Shown here piece after piece: positions 1 to 9,730 of a stretch of 9,730 nt of DNA. Made by a program: the position numbers and the translations under genes. The stretch is from positions 1-9,730 of the IMG/VR virus record IMGVR_UViG_3300018478_000064. The stretch is one strand, 5' to 3'. This DNA comes from a virus. Its lineage: Duplodnaviria; Heunggongvirae; Uroviricota; Caudoviricetes. Below the pieces are notes generated by a model. It saw nothing but the letters and a program-made list of their open reading frames with translations. It was not told the DNA's origin and searched no databases. Numbering within the stretch: position 1 is the stretch's first letter; the number at the start of each line of letters is the position of its first letter.

Positions 1-924
1 AACTCCATTAACTTTTATTTGAACTTCTCCTGATGCCGGAAGATTTACTTTCAAAGAGATAACCCATGGTTGTTTCGACGTATTTGTGTACGTGATTCCA
101 GGATACTTATCTGTGACGATCTGATACGTTTGATCTGTACCGATTAACTGAGACGCTGTTGCTAACGCGACAACACTGTCACTCTGTGCATGTCGCATAT
201 ATGGTTTTGTTGCATCATTTCTACTAAAACCAATGACACTGGCTCCATCACCAGTGACCATATCATCCAACTCTAGGTATTGGATAACATCATGAATACT
301 AGACTTACCGATGATATCTCGTCCTACCTTCGTAAAATCGGTAAGGTCTGCACTATTTTCATTGTTGAAATATGGTAGTTTATTAGTTGTTGCGATCAAA
401 TTCGCAAGAGCACTCAAAGTGTCATTCGAATCCTGCTTTTCATCTAAAGCAGTGCTTAATTCCTCTTGTGTAGTCAACAAAATTACAGTGTCTGTATCTT
501 GATGCCTGAAATACGGTTTATTTATAACACCTTTACTAAAACCAATGACATTGGCTCCATCACCAATAACAGCATTGGATATTCCAAGGTTTTCGAGAGC
601 TGTTTTCACCGTGCCGTCCGATTTGATATCGCCAAACGGATTCTTGCGGCTCAGGTATTCAACAGCAAACCCCGATCCCAGCAATTCAACAAAACCGGGC
701 AGATCACCATTATCAAGCACATCCCGTTGCGTTTTATCACTTACAAACTGGGCCAGAGCTGCAGCAATAAAGCTAGCCTGCCGAATAACCTTATTGACTT
801 GCGCACTGGAGGCTTTCCCTGCTGTAAATCCGGATAAAAGCGCGGGCAACGCTTCCCATTCCTCCTGCGATATAACATTGGCATTTCGATCCGTTGCAAA
901 CGCTTTAAAGTCATTTTTCGCCAT
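1..924 (-). CDS. Tail fibre protein, N-terminal part (P2 gpH / Mu gpS / lambda Stf family); 3' end lies beyond the window start
   Basis: Not in the ORF track because it has no stop in the window. Manual minus-strand translation from the ATG at 924..922 (TGATG overlap with the upstream gene stop) is open to position 1, about 308 codons, starting [33 protein letters not shown]. It contains ...[37 protein letters not shown], which closely resembles the conserved P2 gpH segment FPYFTGNDVASLATLTKVGRDILAKSTVAAVIEYLGL as I recall it. Position immediately after the J-like and gp48-like genes fits a fibre gene. Confidence 0.8.
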
Positions 925-1604
925 CAGAGTAATACTCCCCATGCTCCTACATCAAAACCACTGATGAATTCGTTATCCATATCAAAACCAAAAAATTTTG
1001 AGCCTTCCGATGGGGTTTCCACCGAAGGTGTTTCAATGCCACCCGCCCATACCCCGGCGGCTTTTACTGTGAGATACCCCTGTTTAATTGCCGCAATTAA
1101 CTCACGCGATACATCTGAAATATCAGTATCAGGAAAGACCCAGACCGATATCGTCATGTCCTGGTTATCGACTATCTGCATTCGCAGCCCGGATCCTGCT
1201 GTTGCCGCGTCAAGAATTGCCGGAAGCGAATCATTCCGTCCGTCCCAGTTATTAATCGCAATCTTCGCTTTAAGAATGACACGATAAGTTTCATCGCTGA
1301 GATACATGTATCCTGAATCAGGATCGTATGGTCCCTGCCATACCCCCTGATCATATCCAAGACCGTCGGTATCCCAGCTGAAATAGACACCTGAGATAGG
1401 CTGGCTGACAACACGGCTACGTCCGATCCACAATCCAAGAATGTCAAGTTGCACACCAACCGCAGAGTCAATATCAAATGCAGTAATCAGCCCTCTGGTG
1501 GCAGCCGCAACATCAATAAGTGGCCGGGTCATCAGATCAACATGCGCAAGAAATTTAGGTTTGGTGGCGTGGTAGTTCGTGATTAGTTCGGTGTATTTGC
1601 TCAT
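924..1604 (-). CDS. Baseplate/tail protein, Mu gp48 / P2 gpI-like (DUF2313, YmfQ-like)
   Basis: 226-aa ORF. Its start overlaps the stop of the upstream J-like gene (1601..1604) and its stop overlaps the fibre gene start. Size and position between the J-like gene and the fibre gene match Mu gp48 / P2 gpI. Family assigned from position and general sequence character, not from a search. Confidence 0.65.
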
Positions 1605-2800
1605 GACTCCACCGTTATAACGATATTTTCCGGGGTACAGGACGCAGATTCGTTGTATCTGATATCAATGTTTGATGACGACAAAGCCCCCGGGGATTTA
1701 CCAATCGTCAGTTCCTGAATATCGTAATAGCGTGCATTCCCGCCACTCACCACGCCAAGATTCGCCGGTGAGTAAATGCGACTTAAAAGGACCGAATCAC
1801 CGATCGTCAGACTATTGATATAGTCAGAAATAGCCTGCTGGATTTGCTGCCCTATCTGTGATGTATAACCCGTAAAAACTTTTAATTTAATCCGGGCATA
1901 AACAGGCACATCACTGGAACGCGAGAATTTGATTACATGGGGATTGCCGTATTTATCCGGAACCGTAACGGATGTTGTACCGTGAGTGGCTGTCCCCTGG
2001 CCTTTATTTCCTCTGATAGCCTGAGCAATATCCGTCACATCACCGCCATCCACAATTACAGCAACAGAGTGTGGCGGTAACCCGTTACCGTCCTCCGAGC
2101 CAGTATCGTTTTCATAGAGTTTGTGGCGGGTTACACCGGTAACATTAGAAACAGCACCATCCAGTGCTTCAAATGGGGTTATTGATGGCAACGCAACACT
2201 TTGCGACTGACGGATACGTAACTCCGCATCAGTTTCTGCCGGAGTGCCTACAGTAGCTGCAGCAGGATTGGTTACCGAAACCCAGCCACGGGTTGGCGTA
2301 TTAATTTCAGTGATAGTTCCAGCCAGCGCCGCCACTGCACCACTGACGGAACATGTTGCGGTCGCCATCACTGTACCATCCACGCCGACCACCACTGAAG
2401 CAGGCAAACGCCATATCACATTATTACCATCTTTCACGCTGCCATTAATGATGGTTGTTCCGGCAGTTCCTGTAAGAAGCAAATCAACCGTAGAGTTCGT
2501 CGCGCCTTTACGTGAAATACCATTTATTTTCACGTTACTGGTCAGTGCAGCCCCATAGCCGGTTGCCGGTGAAAAACAGTTGTAGACAGTTATCGCCGTA
2601 TTATTGGCATCATGAATCGCCAGCGCCATCAGAGCCACCATCTGGCCGTCTTTGCTGTCCGGTTCGAGGTAGGCATCACTACCATAAATCTGCTGAAAAT
2701 AGCTAATCAGGGTGCTGAGTATCGTCTGATAATCAGGCGCACTGATCCCCTCCGCGGTTACCTTTGCAGATAAACCGAGAGAATCAAGGTTCAGAGCCAT
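1601..2800 (-). CDS. Baseplate J-like protein (Mu gp47 / P2 gpJ / T4 gp6 family)
   Basis: 399-aa ORF whose start shares base 2800 with the stop of the upstream 117-aa gene. Gly/Thr/Val-rich beta-type composition and the position between the gp25-like and gp48-like genes are typical of baseplate J wedge proteins. Confidence 0.75.
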   Translation of the reverse strand: MALNLDSLGLSAKVTAEGISAPDYQTILSTLISYFQQIYGSDAYLEPDSKDGQMVALMALAIHDANNTAITVYNCFSPATGYGAALTSNVKINGISRKGATNSTVDLLLTGTAGTTIINGSVKDGNNVIWRLPASVVVGVDGTVMATATCSVSGAVAALAGTITEINTPTRGWVSVTNPAAATVGTPAETDAELRIRQSQSVALPSITPFEALDGAVSNVTGVTRHKLYENDTGSEDGNGLPPHSVAVIVDGGDVTDIAQAIRGNKGQGTATHGTTSVTVPDKYGNPHVIKFSRSSDVPVYARIKLKVFTGYTSQIGQQIQQAISDYINSLTIGDSVLLSRIYSPANLGVVSGGNARYYDIQELTIGKSPGALSSSNIDIRYNESASCTPENIVITVES

Positions 2801-3153
2801 TACGCCTCCGATGTAACAGTCGTTATTCCATAGAGAGTGTCGATTTCAGCGGAAAACATGACACGTCGGGTCGTGGTATCCACCGTCGTATTGAAAGAGA
2901 GGATTGATTTAACGCCCTGCGTTTCCAGAATGCGTTTTCTGATCGCTAGGTTGTAAGTTTCCGGTTTTTGCCTGCCCAGCACAGACTGGATCCACGGAGT
3001 CCCTTCGGTGGTGTCGAGAAACCATTGCCCATACCACAATTCGAATCGCGTTTTTACCGCCTGCGCCACGGCCTCCGGTGAGTTAATCAGCCAGGTGTCA
3101 TCACCGCTGCCAAAGGTGTAATCGCCATCGGCGTCTTCACGTCTGTATCGCAT
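2800..3153 (-). CDS. Small baseplate protein in the gpW / gp25 / Mu gp46 position (DUF2634 / XkdS-like)
   Basis: 117-aa ORF lying directly between the spike gene and the J-like gene; its start shares base 3153 with the spike gene stop. This position is held by the gp25-like wedge initiator in Mu, P2 and PBSX-type clusters. Confidence 0.6.
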   Translation of the reverse strand: MRYRREDADGDYTFGSGDDTWLINSPEAVAQAVKTRFELWYGQWFLDTTEGTPWIQSVLGRQKPETYNLAIRKRILETQGVKSILSFNTTVDTTTRRVMFSAEIDTLYGITTVTSEA

Positions 3154-3905
3154 CAGTTTACCCCGTCGGTACTGCTTCCACCGCGCTGAACACCGCCATG
3201 AGTGTGCGTATCATCGATTGGCTTGCCGTTAGCCTTCACGCTCCCCAAAAACTCAACAGCACCAGTGATTTTTGAAGCCACACCAGAAACAACAGACCCC
3301 ACCATGCCACCCATCCAGGTTAACAGACCATGAATGGTTACTTTCTCAGAAAAATCAGCCAGAGGGGCAACCACATCAAGACCACCCGGAGCGACAATTT
3401 TAATTTTCCTGGTATCAGGATTAAGCTCAAAATAGGTGCTGCCGTCGTCACTACGCAACTGTGTGGCACTGGTATTAATACCGCTAATCTTCCTCGCCTG
3501 CGACTGGGGACCGACAATACAAAACGCATCCGATAAATCATGCATTCTGTCATCGACTGGCTCCTGTATCCCGCCACTCTGCCACCAGAAATCAATACAA
3601 CGATCGGCAAAAACGACAAGACACTCATCCCCGGCTTTTACCGGAAAAGTCAACGTACAGCCTCCGCCGCGCGGGAATACCACTGGTACATCCACCAGCA
3701 GGGGTAATGTCGTCGACTGGTTGATTCCATTTGAGTCCGGCTCATAGCCTTTAATCGCAGGTTGAACAACCACTGTTACCGTGTCCGGATCAAATGACTG
3801 GACGATGCCGGGCATAGAAACACGCAGCGCCGACATGACAGAGCCAGCAAGTCTTACATCGGCCTGTTCTTTGCTACCAAGTTGAGCGCTTAAAGAAACG
3901 GGCAT
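3153..3905 (-). CDS. Baseplate central spike protein (P2 gpV / Mu gp45-like)
   Basis: 250-aa ORF. N-terminal region (PGIVQSFDPDTVTVVVQ...PVVFPRGGG...KAGDECLVVFADR) looks like the gpV OB-fold spike domain. C-terminus ends ...DDTHTHGGVQRGGSSTDGVN, with an HxH motif of the kind that coordinates iron at the gpV-type spike apex. A GGAGA Shine-Dalgarno sits about 7 nt upstream of the ATG. Confidence 0.75.
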   Translation of the reverse strand: MPVSLSAQLGSKEQADVRLAGSVMSALRVSMPGIVQSFDPDTVTVVVQPAIKGYEPDSNGINQSTTLPLLVDVPVVFPRGGGCTLTFPVKAGDECLVVFADRCIDFWWQSGGIQEPVDDRMHDLSDAFCIVGPQSQARKISGINTSATQLRSDDGSTYFELNPDTRKIKIVAPGGLDVVAPLADFSEKVTIHGLLTWMGGMVGSVVSGVASKITGAVEFLGSVKANGKPIDDTHTHGGVQRGGSSTDGVN

Positions 3906-3925
3906 TCATATGTCTCCAGAAAGTA

Positions 3926-3949
3926 AAAAACCCGCCGGGTGGCGGGTTC
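3926..3949 (-). terminator. Rho-independent terminator downstream of the 79-aa membrane protein gene
   Basis: Plus-strand text AAAAAACCCGCCGGGTGGCGGGTT. On the minus strand this reads AACCCGCCacccGGCGGGTTTTTT: a 6-8 bp GC stem, 4-nt loop and T6 tract. It lies between the 79-aa ORF stop (3965) and the spike gene start (3905). Hand-counted coordinates, +/-2 bp. Confidence 0.6.
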
Positions 3950-3964
3950 ATTATTGAAGTTTCA

Positions 3965-4204
3965 TTACTGCTTGTTTGCTTCTAACGCTTCAGCTATTCG
4001 GCGAAGATACTCATTGTTTTTAAATGAAACCATGATGCACTCAAAGAATATTCGGCAAAATACAGCACATAACAAAAGCACTAAAGCGCCAGCAGCCTTC
4101 CCATTAACAAACGTTATAATGGCGGCAACAACCAGAAGTAACATTGTGATGCCATACAGAACGTTGATGATTTTTGGAGTTATTAATTTATCAAATCCGA
4201 ACAT
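3965..4204 (-). CDS. Small inner-membrane protein, two predicted transmembrane helices and a charged C-terminal tail; accessory (moron) gene of unknown function
   Basis: 79-aa ORF MFGFDKLITPKIINVLYGITMLLLVVAAIITFVNGKAAGALVLLLCAVFCRIFFECIMVSFKNNEYLRRIAEALEANKQ. Two hydrophobic stretches of about 21 residues separated by a short NGKAAG loop, then a charged tail. An AAGGAA Shine-Dalgarno sits about 8 nt upstream of the ATG, a candidate promoter lies upstream and the terminator lies downstream. The region is visibly AT-rich. Confidence 0.6.
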   Translation of the reverse strand: MFGFDKLITPKIINVLYGITMLLLVVAAIITFVNGKAAGALVLLLCAVFCRIFFECIMVSFKNNEYLRRIAEALEANKQ

Positions 4205-4240
4205 GCGACAAATTCCTTATCGTGAAAGTAGAAGTATCAC

Positions 4241-4268
4241 ATTATAATTACGGGTGATTAATCAACAA
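4241..4268 (-). promoter_or_regulatory. Candidate sigma70 promoter for the 79-aa membrane protein gene
   Basis: On the minus strand: -35-like TTGTTG (plus 4263-4268), 16-nt spacer, perfect -10 TATAAT (plus 4241-4246), about 35 nt upstream of the ATG at 4204. A 10-bp perfect palindrome TGATTAATCA (plus about 4255-4264) overlaps the -35/spacer. Hand-counted coordinates. Confidence 0.35.
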
Positions 4269-4343
4269 TCTTTTTGCATGGAAAGGAACCGATGATTTTC
4301 GGCGCATCCATGCTGTTCTGCAGAAGCTGGACGCCAATGTGAT

Positions 4344-4679
4344 TCACTTCACCTTCCGACAATCATACGTCCAGAACTCCCGAGGCTCGTCCATATTTTT
4401 GCGGATAACTTCAACGTTGAGGATCGGCTTGCCATTTCTGGCCACAAAATCCATCCCTAACCAACGCCCATTACCCGGAATCATCCATTGGATGTTCACA
4501 TTGTCATAATCACCTTCCTGTTTGAGAAAGATGATTTTCTGTGTCTCCGGTTTCTGTCCATTAATCCTTGCAAGTCCGTCTTGCGCTTTCCAGTTGATCG
4601 TAAATGGTCCGCAACCGGTATCAGCAAAGGAAATGAAGGAGATACAGACAAGTAAAACTGTCAACAATAGTCTTTTCAT
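4344..4679 (-). CDS. Sec-exported periplasmic protein (signal peptide, two Cys), unknown function; accessory gene inside the tail operon
   Basis: 111-aa ORF. N-terminus MKRLLLTVLLVCISFISFA / DTG has a positive n-region, a 15-residue hydrophobic core and a SFA signal-peptidase I site. There is no lipobox (D at -3 relative to Cys). The mature protein has Cys near each end (DTGC...TYDC). Its start overlaps the hub gene stop as ATGA (4676-4679). Confidence 0.7.
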   Translation of the reverse strand: MKRLLLTVLLVCISFISFADTGCGPFTINWKAQDGLARINGQKPETQKIIFLKQEGDYDNVNIQWMIPGNGRWLGMDFVARNGKPILNVEVIRKNMDEPREFWTYDCRKVK

Positions 4680-5707
4680 GTGTATTTCGCCGCATCAATC
4701 CCTTTCGAGTTAAGCAATTCTTTGCCACCTTTAGCCAGGCAAAGCAGGTCCATATACCACGCCTGCCCTCGGGTGTCGCCAGTATAATCAATGCTGCCCA
4801 CAATGTAATCACCGTCAGTATTAATGCTGGCAGGCTGTGACATGCCTGGCAGACCGTTAACGTAGAGATTACCGTCGCTTTCAGACTCATCCAGTCGTGC
4901 TGGCGATTTCGCTACCTGGTCATTACTCAAAGAGGCACGGTATACAGATGCCTGATCCAGACGAATAAGCCCACCGAGCTTAATATTTGGATTAATCAGA
5001 CATCTGACATTTACGCCAGCTCCCATCGTCTGCTGTGGCATACCGATAAGCCCGGTGTTAGCATTCAACACTGTAGCAACACCAATATATTTATCTTCAG
5101 GAACAATATTTACCAGATTATTTTCATACCACCAGTTAGCTTTACACTGCCCTGCGATATGATTCATCAACCTTGATGTGTTTTGATAAACAACGCGACC
5201 CCGGGGAAATACCGTTTCCGGCATGTCAGGAACTGCGCCGGATTCGATGCCATATGGTTCGAATGATTTCATACCCAGACTGAAAAGATCGCTGTACTTC
5301 CAGCCAGCTGCCACTGTTGTTTTCACACTTGCGTTCAGATGGCCTTCCCAGCTGTCAATACACTGCAACATGATCCAACTGTCTGTGGCATTATCTTTAC
5401 CAGTGACAGTAAAACGGATATCTCCATTGAATATCATACCAACGTTTTCATCAGGATAATTACCTGCTGCATCCGGTTGCCCCTTGTATCCGGCAATAAC
5501 CTGTATACGCGAAAACTCCTTCTGCATAATCCGGTTCTGAGTGGTAGGAGACAGGTTATAAACCTTAAAATTTCCAACGAATCCATTGAATATGGTCGCA
5601 GGCATTTTCTGAATATTGAAAGTGACTTTAAGCTCAGAAATTTTTATCCCGTCGCCCTTATCATCAACAAGCAATAATTCAAAGTGACGCATCCAGTTTT
5701 TCGACAT
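4676..5707 (-). CDS. Baseplate hub-like protein (tentatively P2 gpD / Mu gp44 / T4 gp27-like)
   Basis: 343-aa ORF directly upstream, in transcription order, of the accessory insertion and the spike gene. The N-terminal segment HFELLLVDDKGDGIKISELKVTFNIQK resembles in style the late-control-D N-terminus (LISLTLTDNRGFEADQLDIELDD in P2 gpD). The functional call is positional and tentative. Confidence 0.5.
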   Translation of the reverse strand: MSKNWMRHFELLLVDDKGDGIKISELKVTFNIQKMPATIFNGFVGNFKVYNLSPTTQNRIMQKEFSRIQVIAGYKGQPDAAGNYPDENVGMIFNGDIRFTVTGKDNATDSWIMLQCIDSWEGHLNASVKTTVAAGWKYSDLFSLGMKSFEPYGIESGAVPDMPETVFPRGRVVYQNTSRLMNHIAGQCKANWWYENNLVNIVPEDKYIGVATVLNANTGLIGMPQQTMGAGVNVRCLINPNIKLGGLIRLDQASVYRASLSNDQVAKSPARLDESESDGNLYVNGLPGMSQPASINTDGDYIVGSIDYTGDTRGQAWYMDLLCLAKGGKELLNSKGIDAAKYT

Positions 5708-5709
5708 TG

Positions 5710-6012
5710 TTACTCCGTGAAAACATAGAGGTGTGAGAGCGTTCCAAGATCGAATTGCGTCGGATTCTCCTGCCCTGCCACGTCGCAGAGCACCACCAGA
5801 GAAAAACCCAGATCCATATATCGATACTGTGCCAGCAGGTCAGCCCCCGTAATCATCGGTATACCTGATATAATGGCGGAGCCATTGCTGTCAGCAAGAT
5901 CCAGAACCCAGTACTCGCCTCGCCAGATGACAGACAGGTGATAAACCGAACCGTTAATTGTGGTGGCAAAAGTCTGATTGTCAGCAACCAGTGGGATTTC
6001 TACGGCTTCCAT
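5710..6012 (-). CDS. Small phage tail-operon protein, unknown function
   Basis: 100-aa ORF tightly packed between the 217-aa ORF and the hub-like gene (2-bp gap to the hub start). It has its own Shine-Dalgarno (GGAAGGTG) overlapping the upstream stop codon. Confidence 0.6.
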   Translation of the reverse strand: MEAVEIPLVADNQTFATTINGSVYHLSVIWRGEYWVLDLADSNGSAIISGIPMITGADLLAQYRYMDLGFSLVVLCDVAGQENPTQFDLGTLSHLYVFTE

Positions 6013-6015
6013 GAA

Positions 6016-6669
6016 TCACCTTCCCAGAAATAAATTGCTCAAATACCCATCAACAGTGGAGATACCTTCTTGCGCCATCTGTGGCAGCGATTTCAGAATG
6101 GAATTATTCGGCGGCACCGTTGTTTTGGTGCCTGTATTCTGCACAGCAGACGTTCCGACTCCCTCGGTCATATTGTTTTTCGGGGCAACCCTGACTGACT
6201 GCGTGGAGGTAATAATTACTTCCCTGAGGGTAAGTGTCGCCAGAAGCACATTTTCACTACTCTTATCGGTCGTGACCTCCAGCGTTTTTATCAACATATT
6301 GTTGTAAATACGCTTGCCGGTTGTCACATCGAAAGGAATACGATTCCGCTGCAGGTTAAGCAGTTCCTGATACAGTTCTTTCGGGCTCAGCCCCAGTAAA
6401 CTGGTAGCAGTCAGGTTACTGGCAAAATCAAGCAGCGATCCGCCTCCGGAAAAACCGGTTTCCATCACAACCTCAGAAGGGCGCCTGAATGCGTGTTCTG
6501 ATATGTAACCAGCGCCCTCACCACTGGCACCAGCATTCGTGGGCTGTTCAACCGGATGTTCCGTAATTTCCAGGGCGTCAGTGTGCTTTTCGGTAATAAC
6601 CACATCAGGAATAATGATTCCTATTGAGCGGGTTCGCTGCTGCAGTAAAACAGATAAAAAGTCCATCAC
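6016..6669 (-). CDS. Phage tail protein of unknown family immediately downstream of the tape measure gene (in the position held by Mu gp43 or a distal-tail protein)
   Basis: 217-aa ORF whose start overlaps the tape measure stop as ATGA (6666-6669). No motif I can confidently assign; no LysM signature seen. Confidence 0.6.
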   Translation of the reverse strand: MMDFLSVLLQQRTRSIGIIIPDVVITEKHTDALEITEHPVEQPTNAGASGEGAGYISEHAFRRPSEVVMETGFSGGGSLLDFASNLTATSLLGLSPKELYQELLNLQRNRIPFDVTTGKRIYNNMLIKTLEVTTDKSSENVLLATLTLREVIITSTQSVRVAPKNNMTEGVGTSAVQNTGTKTTVPPNNSILKSLPQMAQEGISTVDGYLSNLFLGR

Positions 6670-8672
6670 GCAGGCCCTTTCAATTGCTGTACCGCCCTGG
6701 CATTTACAGCCCCCTGCTTGTCAGCAATCAGATTAGCCGCCTCCTGAGGGTTGTTAACTCCATGAACATTTATAACAGTCTGCTGGTTAAGGCTGCCAGC
6801 GGCGGCCTGATACGCCAGCGGGCTGTTCCAGTTTGAATAACCTTCTTTGCGCGCCATCGACTGCATCAATGCTCCCATAGTCCGGGGATCTGTAAGATTC
6901 AATATTGCATTCGGTGATACTCCCATCCATTTCGCAACATCCTGTGCATACTTTTTCGGATCGTTGTTATCACCTGCCGGGGCCCAGGTACTGACAATAT
7001 CCTGAATAGTCTGTAATGCCCGTCCGGTTGTTTTCCCGGTAAAGTAACGCATGAGCTGGTTTTTCATCGCCTCCCAGCCCTCAAGCGCTGATTCGAAAAA
7101 CCGGAACCCTTTACCGCTCACCGGGCGAATGTTCCCGGGGTTATTGTTGCGATCAGCAAGAGTGCCGCCGCCGGGGATGTCGGGCTGGACGTTGGAGCCA
7201 TGCACTACACCGTTACTCTGTCCCTGCCGGATAACTTTACCGGGTCCCCCGTGCAACCAGTCCATCCACGCAGGCCATTCACGGACCTCACTGACATCCC
7301 TGCGTCCGATATCTGTTTTTATACCAATAGCAGCCAGCGTGTCGCCGATAATTCGCTTCGTATACCTCAGTGAAGATTTTGCGCTATCGGCAATATTTTC
7401 TCTGTCACTAACAATATAGCCCGCGTAAAGCGCCCACAATTTAAGCCAGGGTGGGACCGGTAAACCTGATATTTTTCCGAAAGCCCCCAGAACCCTGGAT
7501 ACCCAGACACCCGCGATGAATGTACCGAGGATTTCCAGTGCATTTTGCCAGCCGCCAACACCATCTTTTAGTTCCAGAAGGTGATCACGAAGCCAGGTGA
7601 TCGCATCCTTCGCTTTATCTATTGCCGGTTGCCATTTTTCCCAGTCGATAAGACTGTTACCGCCTTCTTTCCATGTTTTGTAGTCTTCCCACAAGAGACC
7701 GAGAGCCACGATCAGACCGGTAATCAGCCCTATAGGTGACATCCAGAAAGTAGAGTTAAGTATCCGCATGGCGACAACCAGACCGCCGATAACCTCTATC
7801 AGGGTTTTCGTTTCGGCATCCAGTTTCCCCCACCACTCGATGATATCTCCGACACCATCGACTATCCGAAATGCTACCCGCCCGACTATCTCACCCAGCC
7901 AGAGGATCCCCTTTATGACCTTTGTGATGGTGACTTCAATTTTGGGAAAATTTTCAATTATCTTTTTGCGCAGGTTATCAATCTGCCCCGCCAGTCCGTC
8001 CGCAAGATTCGATCCGATTTTGTCCCGCGCCATCCCGGCCATTTCACCGAGCGATTTCAGTGAGGTCATAAACCGGTTTGACGATAAGGCAGCCTGATCG
8101 GCATTAAATCCGATCGCTTTCACCATTTCTGAATACTGAGCGCTGAACTGCCCCACTCCGCGACGCATAGCCATCAGGGTATTTTCGTCAATGCCCAGCA
8201 TCTGCGCATACTGGTTAGCCCGGTAATACGGCATGCTGCTGAGTTTCTGTCCAACGCCCGTAAAGATAGCAGCCATGTCACGCATGTTACCGCTGGCATC
8301 ACGGGTCTGTACGCCCAGGCGATTCAGAAAGCCTTCTGCTCCGGGATTGTTACGAATAAACCGGGAGAGGCTTTCCAGAGAAGATCGCGCAGCGTCCACG
8401 CTGCCGCCAACCTGCGAAACCGCATAGCCAATAGACTGAATTCCCTGGACTGTCGCGCCGGTGCGCTGTGACGCCCAGTAAAGATTATCCAGACCGGAGG
8501 CGATCTTAGCCGTGAAGGCCACCACGGACAGCGCGGCTCCTTCAACGGCCAGCCCCATTTTGATGACATTTGCAGTTGTACCGGCGAGGACAGAACCGAA
8601 TTTTTTCGCTCCTGCATCATCCACACTGAAGCCAAGCGAGACGAGGAAATCTTTAATAGTTTCAGCGTTCAT
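6666..8672 (-). CDS. Tail tape measure protein
   Basis: Largest ORF in the window. The track starts it at a TTG (8693, 675 aa). The ATG at 8672, preceded by GGAGAGAGG about 5 nt upstream, is the more likely start (about 668 aa). Ala/Gly/Ser-rich helical N-terminal region, a central hydrophobic block (LIEVIGGLVVAMRILNSTFWMSPIGLITGLIVALGLLW) and a position right after a frameshifted chaperone gene are all typical of tape measure proteins. Confidence 0.9.
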   Translation of the reverse strand: MNAETIKDFLVSLGFSVDDAGAKKFGSVLAGTTANVIKMGLAVEGAALSVVAFTAKIASGLDNLYWASQRTGATVQGIQSIGYAVSQVGGSVDAARSSLESLSRFIRNNPGAEGFLNRLGVQTRDASGNMRDMAAIFTGVGQKLSSMPYYRANQYAQMLGIDENTLMAMRRGVGQFSAQYSEMVKAIGFNADQAALSSNRFMTSLKSLGEMAGMARDKIGSNLADGLAGQIDNLRKKIIENFPKIEVTITKVIKGILWLGEIVGRVAFRIVDGVGDIIEWWGKLDAETKTLIEVIGGLVVAMRILNSTFWMSPIGLITGLIVALGLLWEDYKTWKEGGNSLIDWEKWQPAIDKAKDAITWLRDHLLELKDGVGGWQNALEILGTFIAGVWVSRVLGAFGKISGLPVPPWLKLWALYAGYIVSDRENIADSAKSSLRYTKRIIGDTLAAIGIKTDIGRRDVSEVREWPAWMDWLHGGPGKVIRQGQSNGVVHGSNVQPDIPGGGTLADRNNNPGNIRPVSGKGFRFFESALEGWEAMKNQLMRYFTGKTTGRALQTIQDIVSTWAPAGDNNDPKKYAQDVAKWMGVSPNAILNLTDPRTMGALMQSMARKEGYSNWNSPLAYQAAAGSLNQQTVINVHGVNNPQEAANLIADKQGAVNARAVQQLKGPA

Positions 8673-9302
8673 TATCCTCTCTCCATTTCTCAATGCGCCG
8701 CTGGTTATCCGCTTTTACCGCCAGATGGTCATTCAAGAGAGCAATGTCGTACAAATCGACAGAGCCATCTTTAAGTGCTGTATAAGGAATTAACCCGGCG
8801 TCAACCGGATTGAGAAGGTAGGACAGCCCGTCCGGCAGGCTGTTAAACGTCAGCCCTGTTGCAGGCTCTGCGTCGTGCTGGTAAGGGGTGTAGGCAAAAA
8901 ATTTCCCAGCGAATCGGCGACCACCCGCGCCACCAGATGAAGCATGACCAGCAGGTCAATATCATCAAACATCAGTTCGCCCCGGGTAAATACCGGCACC
9001 CATCCGTCCATATGACGCCGCGATACCACCGCAAGACAGGGATGAATAATCGCATCGGTGTCATCTTCGGTCAGGGAAGACAGTTCCTCAGCGATACGCG
9101 GGAGCATGGTTTCAAACACCGGTTTTAACTGCTCGAATTTCACGGTGTCGATTTTGCCGTCAGCAGGCAAACGGGAGCGAATGCTCCCGAAATCTGACAT
9201 CATTCCTGCCAGCACCGGCAGAAGTTTGCGGGTCACTTTCAGCTGGTCAAAAACGCTGAGTTTTGCCACGCGATATTTCACGCCTTTGATTTCGAATTCC
9301 AT
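8662..9302 (-). CDS. Predicted -1 frameshift fusion product of the tail assembly chaperone (gpGT-like, about 200 aa)
   Basis: My hand translation of the minus strand finds the -1 frame open from the slippery site, through the whole 157-bp gap, to a TGA at about 8664..8662 that overlaps the first codons of the tape measure gene. About 80 codons, ...KFFAYTPYQHDAEPATGLTFNSLPDGLSYLLNPVDAGLIPYTALKDGSVDLYDIALLNDHLAVKADNQRRIEKWREDNER. Confidence 0.5.
8850..9302 (-). CDS. Tail assembly chaperone (gpG-like, short product)
   Basis: 150-aa acidic ORF immediately upstream of the tape measure gene, with a slippery sequence near its 3' end and an open -1 frame downstream. Confidence 0.7.
   Translation of the reverse strand: MEFEIKGVKYRVAKLSVFDQLKVTRKLLPVLAGMMSDFGSIRSRLPADGKIDTVKFEQLKPVFETMLPRIAEELSSLTEDDTDAIIHPCLAVVSRRHMDGWVPVFTRGELMFDDIDLLVMLHLVARVVADSLGNFLPTPLTSTTQSLQQG
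8896..8907 (-). other. Candidate -1 programmed ribosomal frameshift (slippery) site
   Basis: Minus-strand text CTG GGA AAT TTT TTG in the chaperone frame contains G_GGA_AAT (same class as lambda G_GGA_AAG), immediately followed by A_AAT_TTT and T_TTT_TTG, all fitting the X_XXY_YYZ rule. Hand-counted coordinates. Confidence 0.5.
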
Positions 9303-9305
9303 CTA

Positions 9306-9728
9306 TTAAAACTCCCCGAGAACCTGGTCAATCTTGCCGCAGTCAAACACCCACGGCATCGTATTACCGGTTTTAGCGTTGGCGTTATCCGGTTGTTTCT
9401 GGAACGCAACACTGCGTGCCGTGATGATGTCGCCGCTGACCTTGTTGCGGATCACGATAACGTTATTCCCCCATGTGGCAGAAGACTGGCTCTGTGCGTT
9501 ATACGCCAGCGACAATTTTTTATTTGTCGGTGATGTCTTCAGAAGGTTAACGGTAATCGTCCCGCTTTTATCTGCATGGAGACTGTGCATCACTTCGCCA
9601 TCAGCACCGATAGTCATGGTGTTTTTAGGACCGCCCATCGCAACCACAATCCCCTCTTCAGAACTTGCCGAACCGTACCCGAGGTCAATCGAACCGGTCG
9701 GCCCGGTCAGCGTCGCAGTGACATCCAT
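9306..9728 (-). CDS. Phage tail structural protein, possibly tail tube; N-terminus may lie beyond the window end
   Basis: 140-aa ORF whose first ATG is 2 nt from the window end, so the true start and any ribosome-binding site are not visible. Beta-rich composition. Its stop is 4 bp from the chaperone start. In Mu/P2-type operons the tube gene precedes the chaperone. Confidence 0.4.
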   Translation of the reverse strand: MDVTATLTGPTGSIDLGYGSASSEEGIVVAMGGPKNTMTIGADGEVMHSLHADKSGTITVNLLKTSPTNKKLSLAYNAQSQSSATWGNNVIVIRNKVSGDIITARSVAFQKQPDNANAKTGNTMPWVFDCGKIDQVLGEF

Positions 9729-9730
9729 AA

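Follow-up and report, generated by a model that had tools for sequence, protein, structure and literature searches.

What are two small genes doing between the baseplate hub and spike genes of a phage tail operon? The question is raised by IMG/VR virus record IMGVR_UViG_3300018478_000064, positions 1 to 9,730 (this whole stretch of 9,730 nucleotides [nt] is referred to as the window), which represents the operon for tail and baseplate of a temperate Escherichia coli myovirus of the SEN34 (Brunovirus)-like type. A sequence-only reading had described the interval as a two-gene cassette, a moron for a Sec-exported protein of 111 amino acids (aa) and a 79-aa two-helix membrane protein, with a possible role in superinfection exclusion or defense. 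Both minus-strand genes are present as open reading frames (ORFs), at 4344-4679 and 3965-4204, and both are RefSeq-annotated in a 99.1%-identical prophage of E. coli IGC_RcoliRes_1.1 (the annotated twin). The two-gene cassette itself did not hold, as the genes have different histories, the 111-aa gene being a hub-coupled, constant flank and the other, which encodes a DUF4282 protein, being exchangeable. The best overall explanation, to which we assign a probability of about one in two, is a two-part hotspot comprising a DUF4282 moron and a hub-coupled 111-aa gene, and we infer roles in entry exclusion for their products. The features concerned are the following.

3153-3905, minus strand: spike, 250 aa, right anchor of the hotspot; PF18352 N-terminal domain and GpV Apex motif; RefSeq "membrane-puncturing spike protein"
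3914-4332, minus strand: DUF4282 moron module (scar, promoter-like element, ribosome-binding site, coding sequence and terminator), a 419-bp identity island
3918-3949, minus strand: intrinsic terminator, GAACCCGCC-ACCC-GGCGGGTTT plus T-run; 9-bp GC-rich stem, 4-nt loop
3965-4204, minus strand: DUF4282 gene, 79 aa; PF14110, phrog_12129; RefSeq "DUF4282 domain-containing protein"
4214-4218, minus strand: ribosome-binding site AAGGA, 9 nt before the DUF4282 ATG
4241-4268, minus strand: sigma-70-like promoter motif; -35 TTGTTG at 4268-4263, 16-nt spacer, perfect -10 TATAAT at 4246-4241
4258-4341, minus strand: recombination scar of a different (clade B) allele of the 111-aa gene, whose last 27 codons remain with the stop, HIGVQLLQNSMDAPKIIGSFPCKKIVD
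4344-4679, minus strand: 111-aa gene; phrog_3443; RefSeq label in some cases "STY1065/STY2022 family phage-derived protein"; annotated in the twin
4620-4679, minus strand: signal peptide of the 111-aa protein, approximately codons 1-20
4676-5707, minus strand: baseplate hub, 343 aa, E217_gp41-type, left anchor of the hotspot; PF22759 E217_GP41, phrog_196 "baseplate hub"

An accessory-gene hotspot between hub and spike

We surveyed 160 loci with spike relatives (80 one-genome-per-species contigs and 80 IMG/VR loci) together with nine annotated records. Hub and spike were located in each locus by iterated hidden Markov models, and both were present in 153 loci, pairs of which are not independent. 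Across these 153 loci, the hub-to-spike interval ranged from -11 to 2817 bp; the two genes abutted or overlapped in 18 loci, including ones from Arsenophonus, Serratia, Erwinia, the Pantoea group, Salmonella, and Paraburkholderia, and the remaining 135 slots were filled. With 18 relatives having hub and spike side by side, the interval qualifies as an insertion site. This is the outcome that the sequence-only reading had anticipated for relatives without the cargo: among the 74 species-representative loci, 18 were adjacent and 56 filled, which favors insertion, and related phages do not always carry both genes. Clustering of the interval ORFs over all loci yielded 59 clusters and 52 architectures; at least 53 cargo gene clusters occupy the intervals that are filled. 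Mean GC content was 41% for cargo beyond the 111-aa gene, 45.7% for the 111-aa family, and 52-53% for hub and spike, and over 109 loci the cargo averaged 11.7 points under its flanks. These results indicated that the hub-spike junction is an insertion hotspot for accessory genes. A literature search for a described hub-spike hotspot returned nothing relevant, and the hotspot is apparently undescribed so far.

The hotspot consists of two parts. A hub-coupled gene of the 111-aa family forms the first, opening most filled slots, and a cargo bay forms the second, its left edge lying at the 3' end of the 111-aa gene and its right edge at the intrinsic terminator before the spike start codon. On the left side, the 111-aa family came first after the hub in 115 of the 135 filled slots (48 of 56 in the species-representative genomes), and its start, in all loci with a clean full-length ORF call, lay -4 to +19 nt from the stop of the hub. 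In the window, the hub stop overlaps the 111-aa start in ATGA (-4 nt), an arrangement of translational coupling.

On the right side, the sequence-only reading had attributed an intrinsic terminator to the 79-aa gene. A strong hairpin with a T-run is indeed found at 3949-3918, ending 13 nt before the spike ATG, and DUF4282 is followed by a terminator in all six contexts examined, the copies outside this slot having their own. The hairpin is not private to this gene, however: in 114 of the 135 filled slots, whatever the cargo, a comparable hairpin, GC-rich and with a T-run, lies just before the spike, versus 3 of the 18 adjacent loci, and the E. coli-type prophage loci carry the same AACCCGCC-ACCC-GGCGGGTT hairpin. 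The idea of a DUF4282-specific terminator was dropped, as the element is common to nearly all cargo types. Judged by this distribution, the cargo bay has the terminator as its shared right border, which probably serves as a recombination anchor. Because the 13 nt before the spike start leave no room for a promoter, late transcription would have to read through the terminator, and such read-through is classical moron logic (PMC3594210).

The most common architecture was the 111-aa family followed by a 257-aa protein and a 131-142-aa HEPN-like protein (25 loci). It was followed in frequency by the 111-aa family with DUF4282 (21 loci), a lone 241-aa lipoprotein (9 loci), and the 111-aa family by itself (6 loci). 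Pfam assignments among the cargoes included a YafO toxin and its partner, pairs of Phd with Doc/Fic, one membrane protein each with bPH_2 and DUF2335, and a secreted OB-fold protein of the tRNA_anti-like kind. In Photorhabdus prophages (L054, 4401-4694, and L070), a T4 Imm-family protein (PF14373 Imm_superinfect, E = 1.6e-14) fused to a C-terminal zinc ribbon lies directly after the 111-aa gene. Cluster c18 (409 aa; L029 3407-4636, L034, and L089) combines an N-terminal transmembrane (TM) segment, a long helical/coiled-coil region, and a C-terminal T5orf172/MUG113 (GIY-YIG-type) nuclease domain; DUF4041 was not detected in it with Pfam at E ≤0.01. Going by these domain matches, some slot cargoes are recognized anti-phage or exclusion families. 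A crude predictor placed a signal peptide or TM segment in ~54% of the clusters, and PADLOC, run on eight alternative cargoes, returned nothing but one marginal HEPN match.

Two further cargoes deserve mention on their own account. The most common second-position cargo (L005 3468-4623, L009 3471-4630, and L179 5531-6690) is a conserved pair of ~243-257 aa and 131-142 aa, whose smaller protein shows a HEPN-like R-N-x-x-D-Y motif and a marginal PADLOC match to HEPN_IX (E = 0.009); this unannotated pair is a candidate two-gene defense or toxin-antitoxin system. Cluster c11 (L038 5566-5940; L114, L118, and L016) is a 124-aa secreted protein encoded by the second gene after the 111-aa family, with the same "KCG...C-near-C-terminus" pattern, and it may be a distant paralogue of that family that arose by tandem duplication.

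The resident genes and the exchangeable block

The 111-aa protein begins with an n-region MKR, a 14-residue hydrophobic core, and an SFA↓D cleavage-type site, and thus the Sec-type export signal ascribed to it stands. A lipobox was looked for and none was present (...SFISFA↓DTGC), so that a lipoprotein was dropped as a candidate. Relatives are named "secreted" or "putative exported" in their sources. The AlphaFold2 (AF2) model places a low-confidence helix at the N-terminus, ahead of an all-beta domain modeled with confidence, and the mature protein of ~91 aa is predicted to form an eight-stranded beta-barrel, in which Cys23 and Cys107 are invariant. Family members across loci share the signal peptide and the two invariant cysteines, and align with the window's protein at 28-64% identity. 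The family is narrow, as a profile search of 1.84 billion representative proteins gave 55 clusters only; long multi-repeat profile matches (P0219 and P0223) were discarded as low-complexity artefacts. Two longer relatives (P0178 and P0189; L024 3831-4697 and L078 4651-5541) start with a lipobox signal peptide, continue with an N-terminal domain of ~190 aa that is conserved and unannotated, and end in the barrel domain. Because these two are lipoproteins with the domain at the C-terminus, the domain of the 111-aa family is placed in the periplasm.

Searches for a known identity gave the following. Pfam has no model for the 111-aa protein, and all 63 family members yielded scattered noise only at E ≤5. 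PADLOC and NCBIfam gave no match, comparison with the periplasmic inhibitors of lysozymes or transglycosylases (MliC/PliC and Ivy) and with T4 Sp revealed no sequence or fold match, and a literature search found no relevant paper on the STY1065 family.

The 111-aa gene follows its hub rather closely. Its pairwise identities correlated with those of the two hub halves at Spearman values of 0.80 and 0.82 and with those of the first 70 spike residues at 0.62, whereas the equally adjacent plug correlated with the hub at 0.54. Among hubs at least 95% identical, the 111-aa family was 84% identical, compared with 93.5% for the spike and 96.5% for the plug. An identical 111-aa protein in Salmonella strains is followed either by the 243+142-aa pair or by Phd-Doc. 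Comparison of these sequences suggests a matched module of hub, 111-aa protein, and spike N-terminus; by the same evidence, the 111-aa gene is best described as the conserved, hub-coupled left flank of the slot, diverging faster than its structural neighbors.

The 79-aa protein matches PF14110 at 42.2 bits (cut-off, 27) over residues 2-71, and a Pfam-wide scan found DUF4282 and a weak YbhQ match only, with no YebO-type match. Against PF14373 Imm_superinfect there was no match at E ≤0.1; neither PADLOC (PADLOC-DB 2.0) nor NCBIfam gave a match, and a literature search found no paper mentioning DUF4282. As the earlier reading had proposed, searches of Pfam, phrog, PADLOC, and NCBIfam identified neither this protein nor the 111-aa protein as a known component of tails or lysis systems. 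The two-helix membrane assignment was likewise supported. Two hydrophobic segments are present, and AF2 models a helical hairpin (helix 10-33, a turn, and helix 37-78) at a predicted local distance difference test score (pLDDT) of 86. Lysine and arginine number two in the N-tail, one in the 5-residue loop, and four in the C-tail, and therefore both ends are predicted to be cytoplasmic (N-in/C-in). In 46 DUF4282 relatives, the conserved parts are an N-tail F-x-F-D-K-L-I-T-P-K-I-I, a second helix with invariant R51 and E55, and a C-terminal helix F-K-N-N-E-Y-L-R-R-I-A-E-A-L-E, while the first helix and the short periplasmic loop (~5 residues) are variable. An antisense 102-aa ORF (3939-4247, plus strand) lies wholly opposite DUF4282, is absent from RefSeq, and was rejected as most likely spurious.

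DUF4282 was found in 21 of the 135 filled slots and in 1 of 56 in the species-representative genomes. It is also present where the 111-aa gene is lacking: immediately after the tape-measure gene in siphovirus-type Klebsiella prophages, beside gtrABC in Pantoea, and abutting the stop of the tape-measure/"lytic tail protein" gene in Edwardsiella phage GF-2. In the latter (L177 4001-6316), a second accessory region, extending from this gene to a Dit-like gene, holds DUF4282, two Arc-like regulators, and an Ant antirepressor and resembles P22 immI; therefore, the tail operons of the broader group have more than one cargo site.

The compositional shift noted in the earlier reading was confirmed, with GC at 37.5% in the DUF4282 gene and 41% in the 139-bp gap, compared with 48.5% in the window and 51% in the spike gene. 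It does not extend to the 111-aa gene, which equals the hub in this respect (44.3% versus 44.9%). Nor is the gap (4205-4343) purely regulatory. One of its frames reads HIGVQLLQNSMDAPKIIGSFPCKKIVD followed by a stop and matches the C-termini of clade-B 111-aa proteins (compare ...FLNVQLLQNSMDAPKIIGSFPCKKV), and on this alignment part of the gap is a pseudogene scar of the other 111-aa allele. The -35 of the promoter motif overlaps the end of the scar ORF. As for the promoter-like element itself, TTGTTG-16-TATAAT is present and its TATAAT, at 4246-4241, is the only one on the coding strand of the window; it remains a motif, as the -35 matches at 3 of 6 positions only and a consensus promoter scanner reported no site in the gap under its rule.

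The scar is a trace of recombination. The 419 bp at 3914-4332 are 98.8% identical to prophage L112, in which an intact clade-B 111-aa gene is followed by DUF4282; the L112 hub is 72-74% identical to that of the window, and the start of its spike gene has no blastn match. The complete block was found in 83 of 5,426 complete E. coli genomes, and ~90 more match only its left 60-75 nt, inside intact clade-B genes. Because a 98.8% island lies between diverged flanks, the block, which comprises DUF4282 with the promoter region and the terminator as well as the final 75 nt of a clade-B gene, has either been transferred from one diverged backbone to another or persisted while recombination of the backbones went on around it. 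The label of moron, in the Juhala/Hendrix sense that PMC3594210 summarizes, therefore suits DUF4282, which is patchy, low in GC, and equipped with a promoter-like motif, a terminator, and the 98.8% island; it does not suit the 111-aa gene, a conserved flank with no promoter motif of its own.

Proposed roles of the two proteins and competing explanations

Neither protein belongs to a characterized family; their position, topology, and associations make a role against superinfection plausible. The 419-bp DUF4282 moron arrived or was retained by recombination, which left the 3' stub of another 111-aa allele. Lysogens would probably produce DUF4282 from its own promoter, and the terminator would insulate the late genes downstream. 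The protein would then act at the step of inner-membrane opening by the tape measure or tail tip, in the manner of HK97 gp15 and T4 Imm. That DUF4282 is a lysogen-expressed inner-membrane protein blocking genome entry of incoming phages at the tape-measure/tail-tip step is a tentative proposal by analogy, with the odds leaning somewhat against it. It is put forward because of the moron anatomy, the topology, the repeated placement by tape-measure, hub, and spike genes in three unrelated tail types, the company kept in the slot, and the HK97 gp15 and T4 Imm precedents.

The 111-aa protein would probably be made with the late tail proteins, possibly also in lysogens, and exported to the periplasm. 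There it would bind a target, in the envelope or at the tail tip, that corresponds to its own hub-spike type, following an exclusion logic like that of Sp, Llp, or Cor. Its assignment as a periplasmic, type-matched exclusion or protection factor is our best guess, though a rather doubtful one. A still bolder combination is that the slot forms a two-layer, self-matched entry barrier, in which the 111-aa barrel, as a periplasmic exclusion factor of a new kind, recognizes the hub-spike tip of own-type phages and DUF4282, as a new family of injection blockers in the inner membrane, blocks formation of the tape-measure channel, the SEN34-like hub-spike junction then being an unmined hotspot for entry-stage defenses. 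Recognition of own-type tips would explain the covariation with hub and spike N-terminus, and a DUF4282 aimed at the tape-measure channel would account for the repeated finding of its gene immediately after tape-measure genes in tails that are unrelated; as a whole, we regard this combination as speculative and unlikely.

Several observations weigh against entry exclusion. The roles of both families are inferred from sequence and by analogy, and PADLOC matched neither protein. The promoter motif has a weak -35 and is conserved only among near-identical copies, and it thereby gains no independent support; lysogen expression of the 111-aa gene is doubtful because that gene lacks a promoter motif of its own. 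The covariation of the 111-aa gene with the hub could reflect linkage and shared ancestry, the locus pairs being non-independent. In GF-2, DUF4282 leaves no space for a promoter after the tape-measure stop, and therefore it can also be a late-operon gene. The conserved surface of DUF4282 is predicted to be intramembrane and cytoplasmic, which would fit a host or cytoplasmic partner better than recognition of an incoming tail from outside. This cytoplasm-facing conservation and the late-operon coupling in GF-2 count against a simple model of recognizing the incoming tail and keep rival explanations alive.

The rival that survives best is that DUF4282 serves lysogenic conversion or fitness rather than defense, by modulating a host inner-membrane transporter, sensor, or stress response. 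The cytoplasmic/intramembrane position of the conserved face (R51, E55, the N-tail, and the C-helix) opposite a tiny, variable periplasmic loop fits such a role, as do the proximity of DUF4282 to the gtrABC conversion genes in Pantoea, the wide occurrence of its relatives in Enterobacterales genomes, and the many non-defense roles of morons (PMC3594210). On the other hand, the contexts examined are all phage- or prophage-like, with three of the five distinct ones inside tail operons by envelope-crossing parts, and the identifiable slot neighbors are mostly defense-type genes. Moreover, modulation of a host membrane protein needed for phage entry would itself amount to exclusion. We consider this explanation unlikely, although it deserves to be kept in mind.

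Class II holins are small proteins with two TM helices, an N-in/C-in topology, and a charged C-tail, and their genes neighbor those for endolysin and spanins. DUF4282, with 79 aa, two TM helices, a predicted N-in/C-in topology, and a charged C-tail, resembles them and shares its slot with toxin-antitoxin modules; it might accordingly damage membranes, as a holin- or antiholin-like protein, a type I-toxin-like effector of abortive infection, or a modulator of lysis timing. This explanation is improbable, given that the window has no endolysin or spanin gene near DUF4282, that a holin-like toxin under a constitutive promoter would be lethal unless regulated, that no antitoxin or antisense partner is evident (a scan of the whole window against Rfam at E ≤1 revealed no RNA family), and that DUF4282 is translationally coupled to the tape-measure gene in GF-2.

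The two genes could also form one co-acquired, co-functional periplasmic-plus-membrane exclusion pair, like T4 Sp and Imm. They are adjacent, both products are envelope-targeted, and the pair recurs in 21 of the 153 loci and is found also in Erwinia rhapontici (L021). Yet the 111-aa family is present in 115 loci and DUF4282 in 21 of those (48 versus 1 among species representatives), the same 111-aa protein occurs with other cargo, and the Klebsiella, Pantoea, and GF-2 contexts have DUF4282 and lack the 111-aa gene. Likewise, the identity island takes in DUF4282 and not the resident 111-aa gene. By these comparisons, the pair is largely refuted as a genetic unit, and joint function is very improbable as well.

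Least probable of all is that the 111-aa protein is a tail or assembly component (hub-associated or at the tip) whose N-terminal helix is not a cleaved signal: while its gene is hub-coupled, present in most relatives and in isolated phages of the group, and covaries with hub and spike N-terminus, the export signal and the absence from many relatives make a structural role unlikely, the gene being missing from the 18 adjacent loci and replaced by unrelated exported proteins or lipoproteins in ~20 filled slots, the protein having a classic n-h-c signal, two invariant cysteines, and lipoprotein-fusion relatives, the family GC lying 7 points under that of the structural genes, and the Pam3/E217-type baseplate families in Pfam accounting for plug, hub, and spike without it.

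The two-part hotspot is of interest in several respects. It is sharply bounded, lies within the baseplate block of prophages from a family that is common across Enterobacterales, and holds more than 50 cargo clusters, most of them unannotated; the slot is thus a source of candidates for new entry-stage or abortive defenses. Two orphan families become directly testable, namely DUF4282, a repeated neighbor of tape-measure genes, and the narrow 111-aa barrel family, which tracks its own hub. The 419-bp island with its pseudogene scar offers a clean recombination example of cargo exchange. If it is true that either protein blocks genome entry, a mechanism would be added to the short list of characterized superinfection-exclusion proteins.

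The wider operon and comparison with known systems

The long ORFs of the window are all on the minus strand, where they make up a contractile-tail operon. Besides the genes listed above, it comprises the following.

9306-9728, minus strand: tube
8850-9302, minus strand: chaperone
6666-8693, minus strand: tape measure
6016-6669, minus strand: Dit-like protein
5710-6012, minus strand: Pam3_gp18-type plug
2800-3153, minus strand: 117-aa protein; the homologue at the identical position is a Pfam Sheath_initiator
1601-2800, minus strand: baseplate J
924-1604, minus strand: DUF2612/wedge
Left window end, minus strand: tail-fiber gene, which runs off the window with its frame open through position 1

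Matches to the region were found in 316 of the 5,426 complete E. coli genomes, and several E. coli vB_EcoM phages, Klebsiella phage Mulock, and Salmonella phage SEN34 (genus Brunovirus) are among the isolated relatives. In order along the minus strand, the intergenic distances are 3, 156, -4, 3, 2, -4, 139, 59, -1, -1, and -4 nt. Spacing is therefore -4 to 3 nt except at the 111-aa gene/DUF4282 (139), DUF4282/spike (59), and chaperone/tape-measure (156) junctions. The claim that only the hub-spike interval has a gap was essentially right, since the 156-nt space (8694-8849) holds a DUF6889 ORF in the annotated twin, where it overlaps the tape-measure start. In RefSeq, the tape measure starts at the equivalent of 8672, compared with the TTG at 8693 in the window. 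The DUF6889 ORF in the chaperone-tape measure space may be the usual second or frameshifted chaperone product.

Spike and sheath-initiator genes overlap by 1 nt in the window. In SEN34 and some Salmonella prophages (L176 [SEN34] 5165-5302; L180/L182 7153-7290), a 45-aa ORF and ~240 nt of extra DNA lie between them, and this junction may be another small insertion point. At the distal end of the tail-fiber gene (window 1-600), GC falls to 37-42%, as is typical of the mosaic receptor-binding end. One locus of the survey, L017 (CACSKA010000001.1), is labelled Chryseobacterium sp. 18061 and carries an Enterobacterales-type prophage tail with a spike 84% identical to that of the window, which suggests that the assembly is contaminated or mislabelled.

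With respect to known systems, the hotspots of P2/P4 and the lambdoid morons (bor and lom) are fixed sites between conserved genes with alternating unrelated cargo. The hub-spike slot resembles them in its many alternating modules, its AT-rich cargo, and its toxin-antitoxin and defense genes; it differs in lying inside the baseplate block, with a conserved "founder" gene on the left and a conserved terminator on the right.

T4 Sp, T5 Llp, and phi80/N15 Cor are small phage proteins with signal peptides that act outside the cytoplasm and block incoming phage in the envelope. The 111-aa protein is likewise small and exported, but has no sequence or fold match to them. T5 Llp and Cor carry a lipobox, which the 111-aa protein lacks, and T4 Sp is helical, in contrast to the predicted beta-barrel of the 111-aa protein. 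PMC3594210 includes a description of Cor.

The HK97 gp15 moron is a neighbor of the tape-measure gene within the tail operon, and its product is an inner-membrane protein that imposes an entry block that depends on the incoming tail (PMC3594210). Like DUF4282, gp15 (YebO-like) is a small inner-membrane protein from a discrete, patchy, low-GC insert in a tail operon, beside envelope-crossing genes and with a promoter (here a motif only) and a terminator (PMC3594210). The two differ in that there is no sequence relationship, the site is chaperone-tape measure for gp15 versus hub-spike here, the present phage is contractile-tailed, and the activity of DUF4282 is proposed by analogy. T4 Imm binds the tape-measure protein, blocking genome translocation (bioRxiv 10.64898/2026.03.06.709160). 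It is, as predicted for the DUF4282 protein, a two-helix inner-membrane protein, and a true PF14373 member occupies the same slot in Photorhabdus; unlike Imm, the DUF4282 protein has no PF14373 match, and its conserved residues are cytoplasmic/intramembrane rather than periplasmic. SNIPE, a membrane nuclease with TM, DUF4041, and GIY-YIG parts, acts at the injection site through tape-measure proteins (PMC13190303). The c18 cargo of other genomes has a similar layout, although DUF4041 was not detected in it (PMC13190303). Morons and prophage defense hotspots are thus kinds already known, and what appears to be undescribed is this hotspot with its two uncharacterized families.

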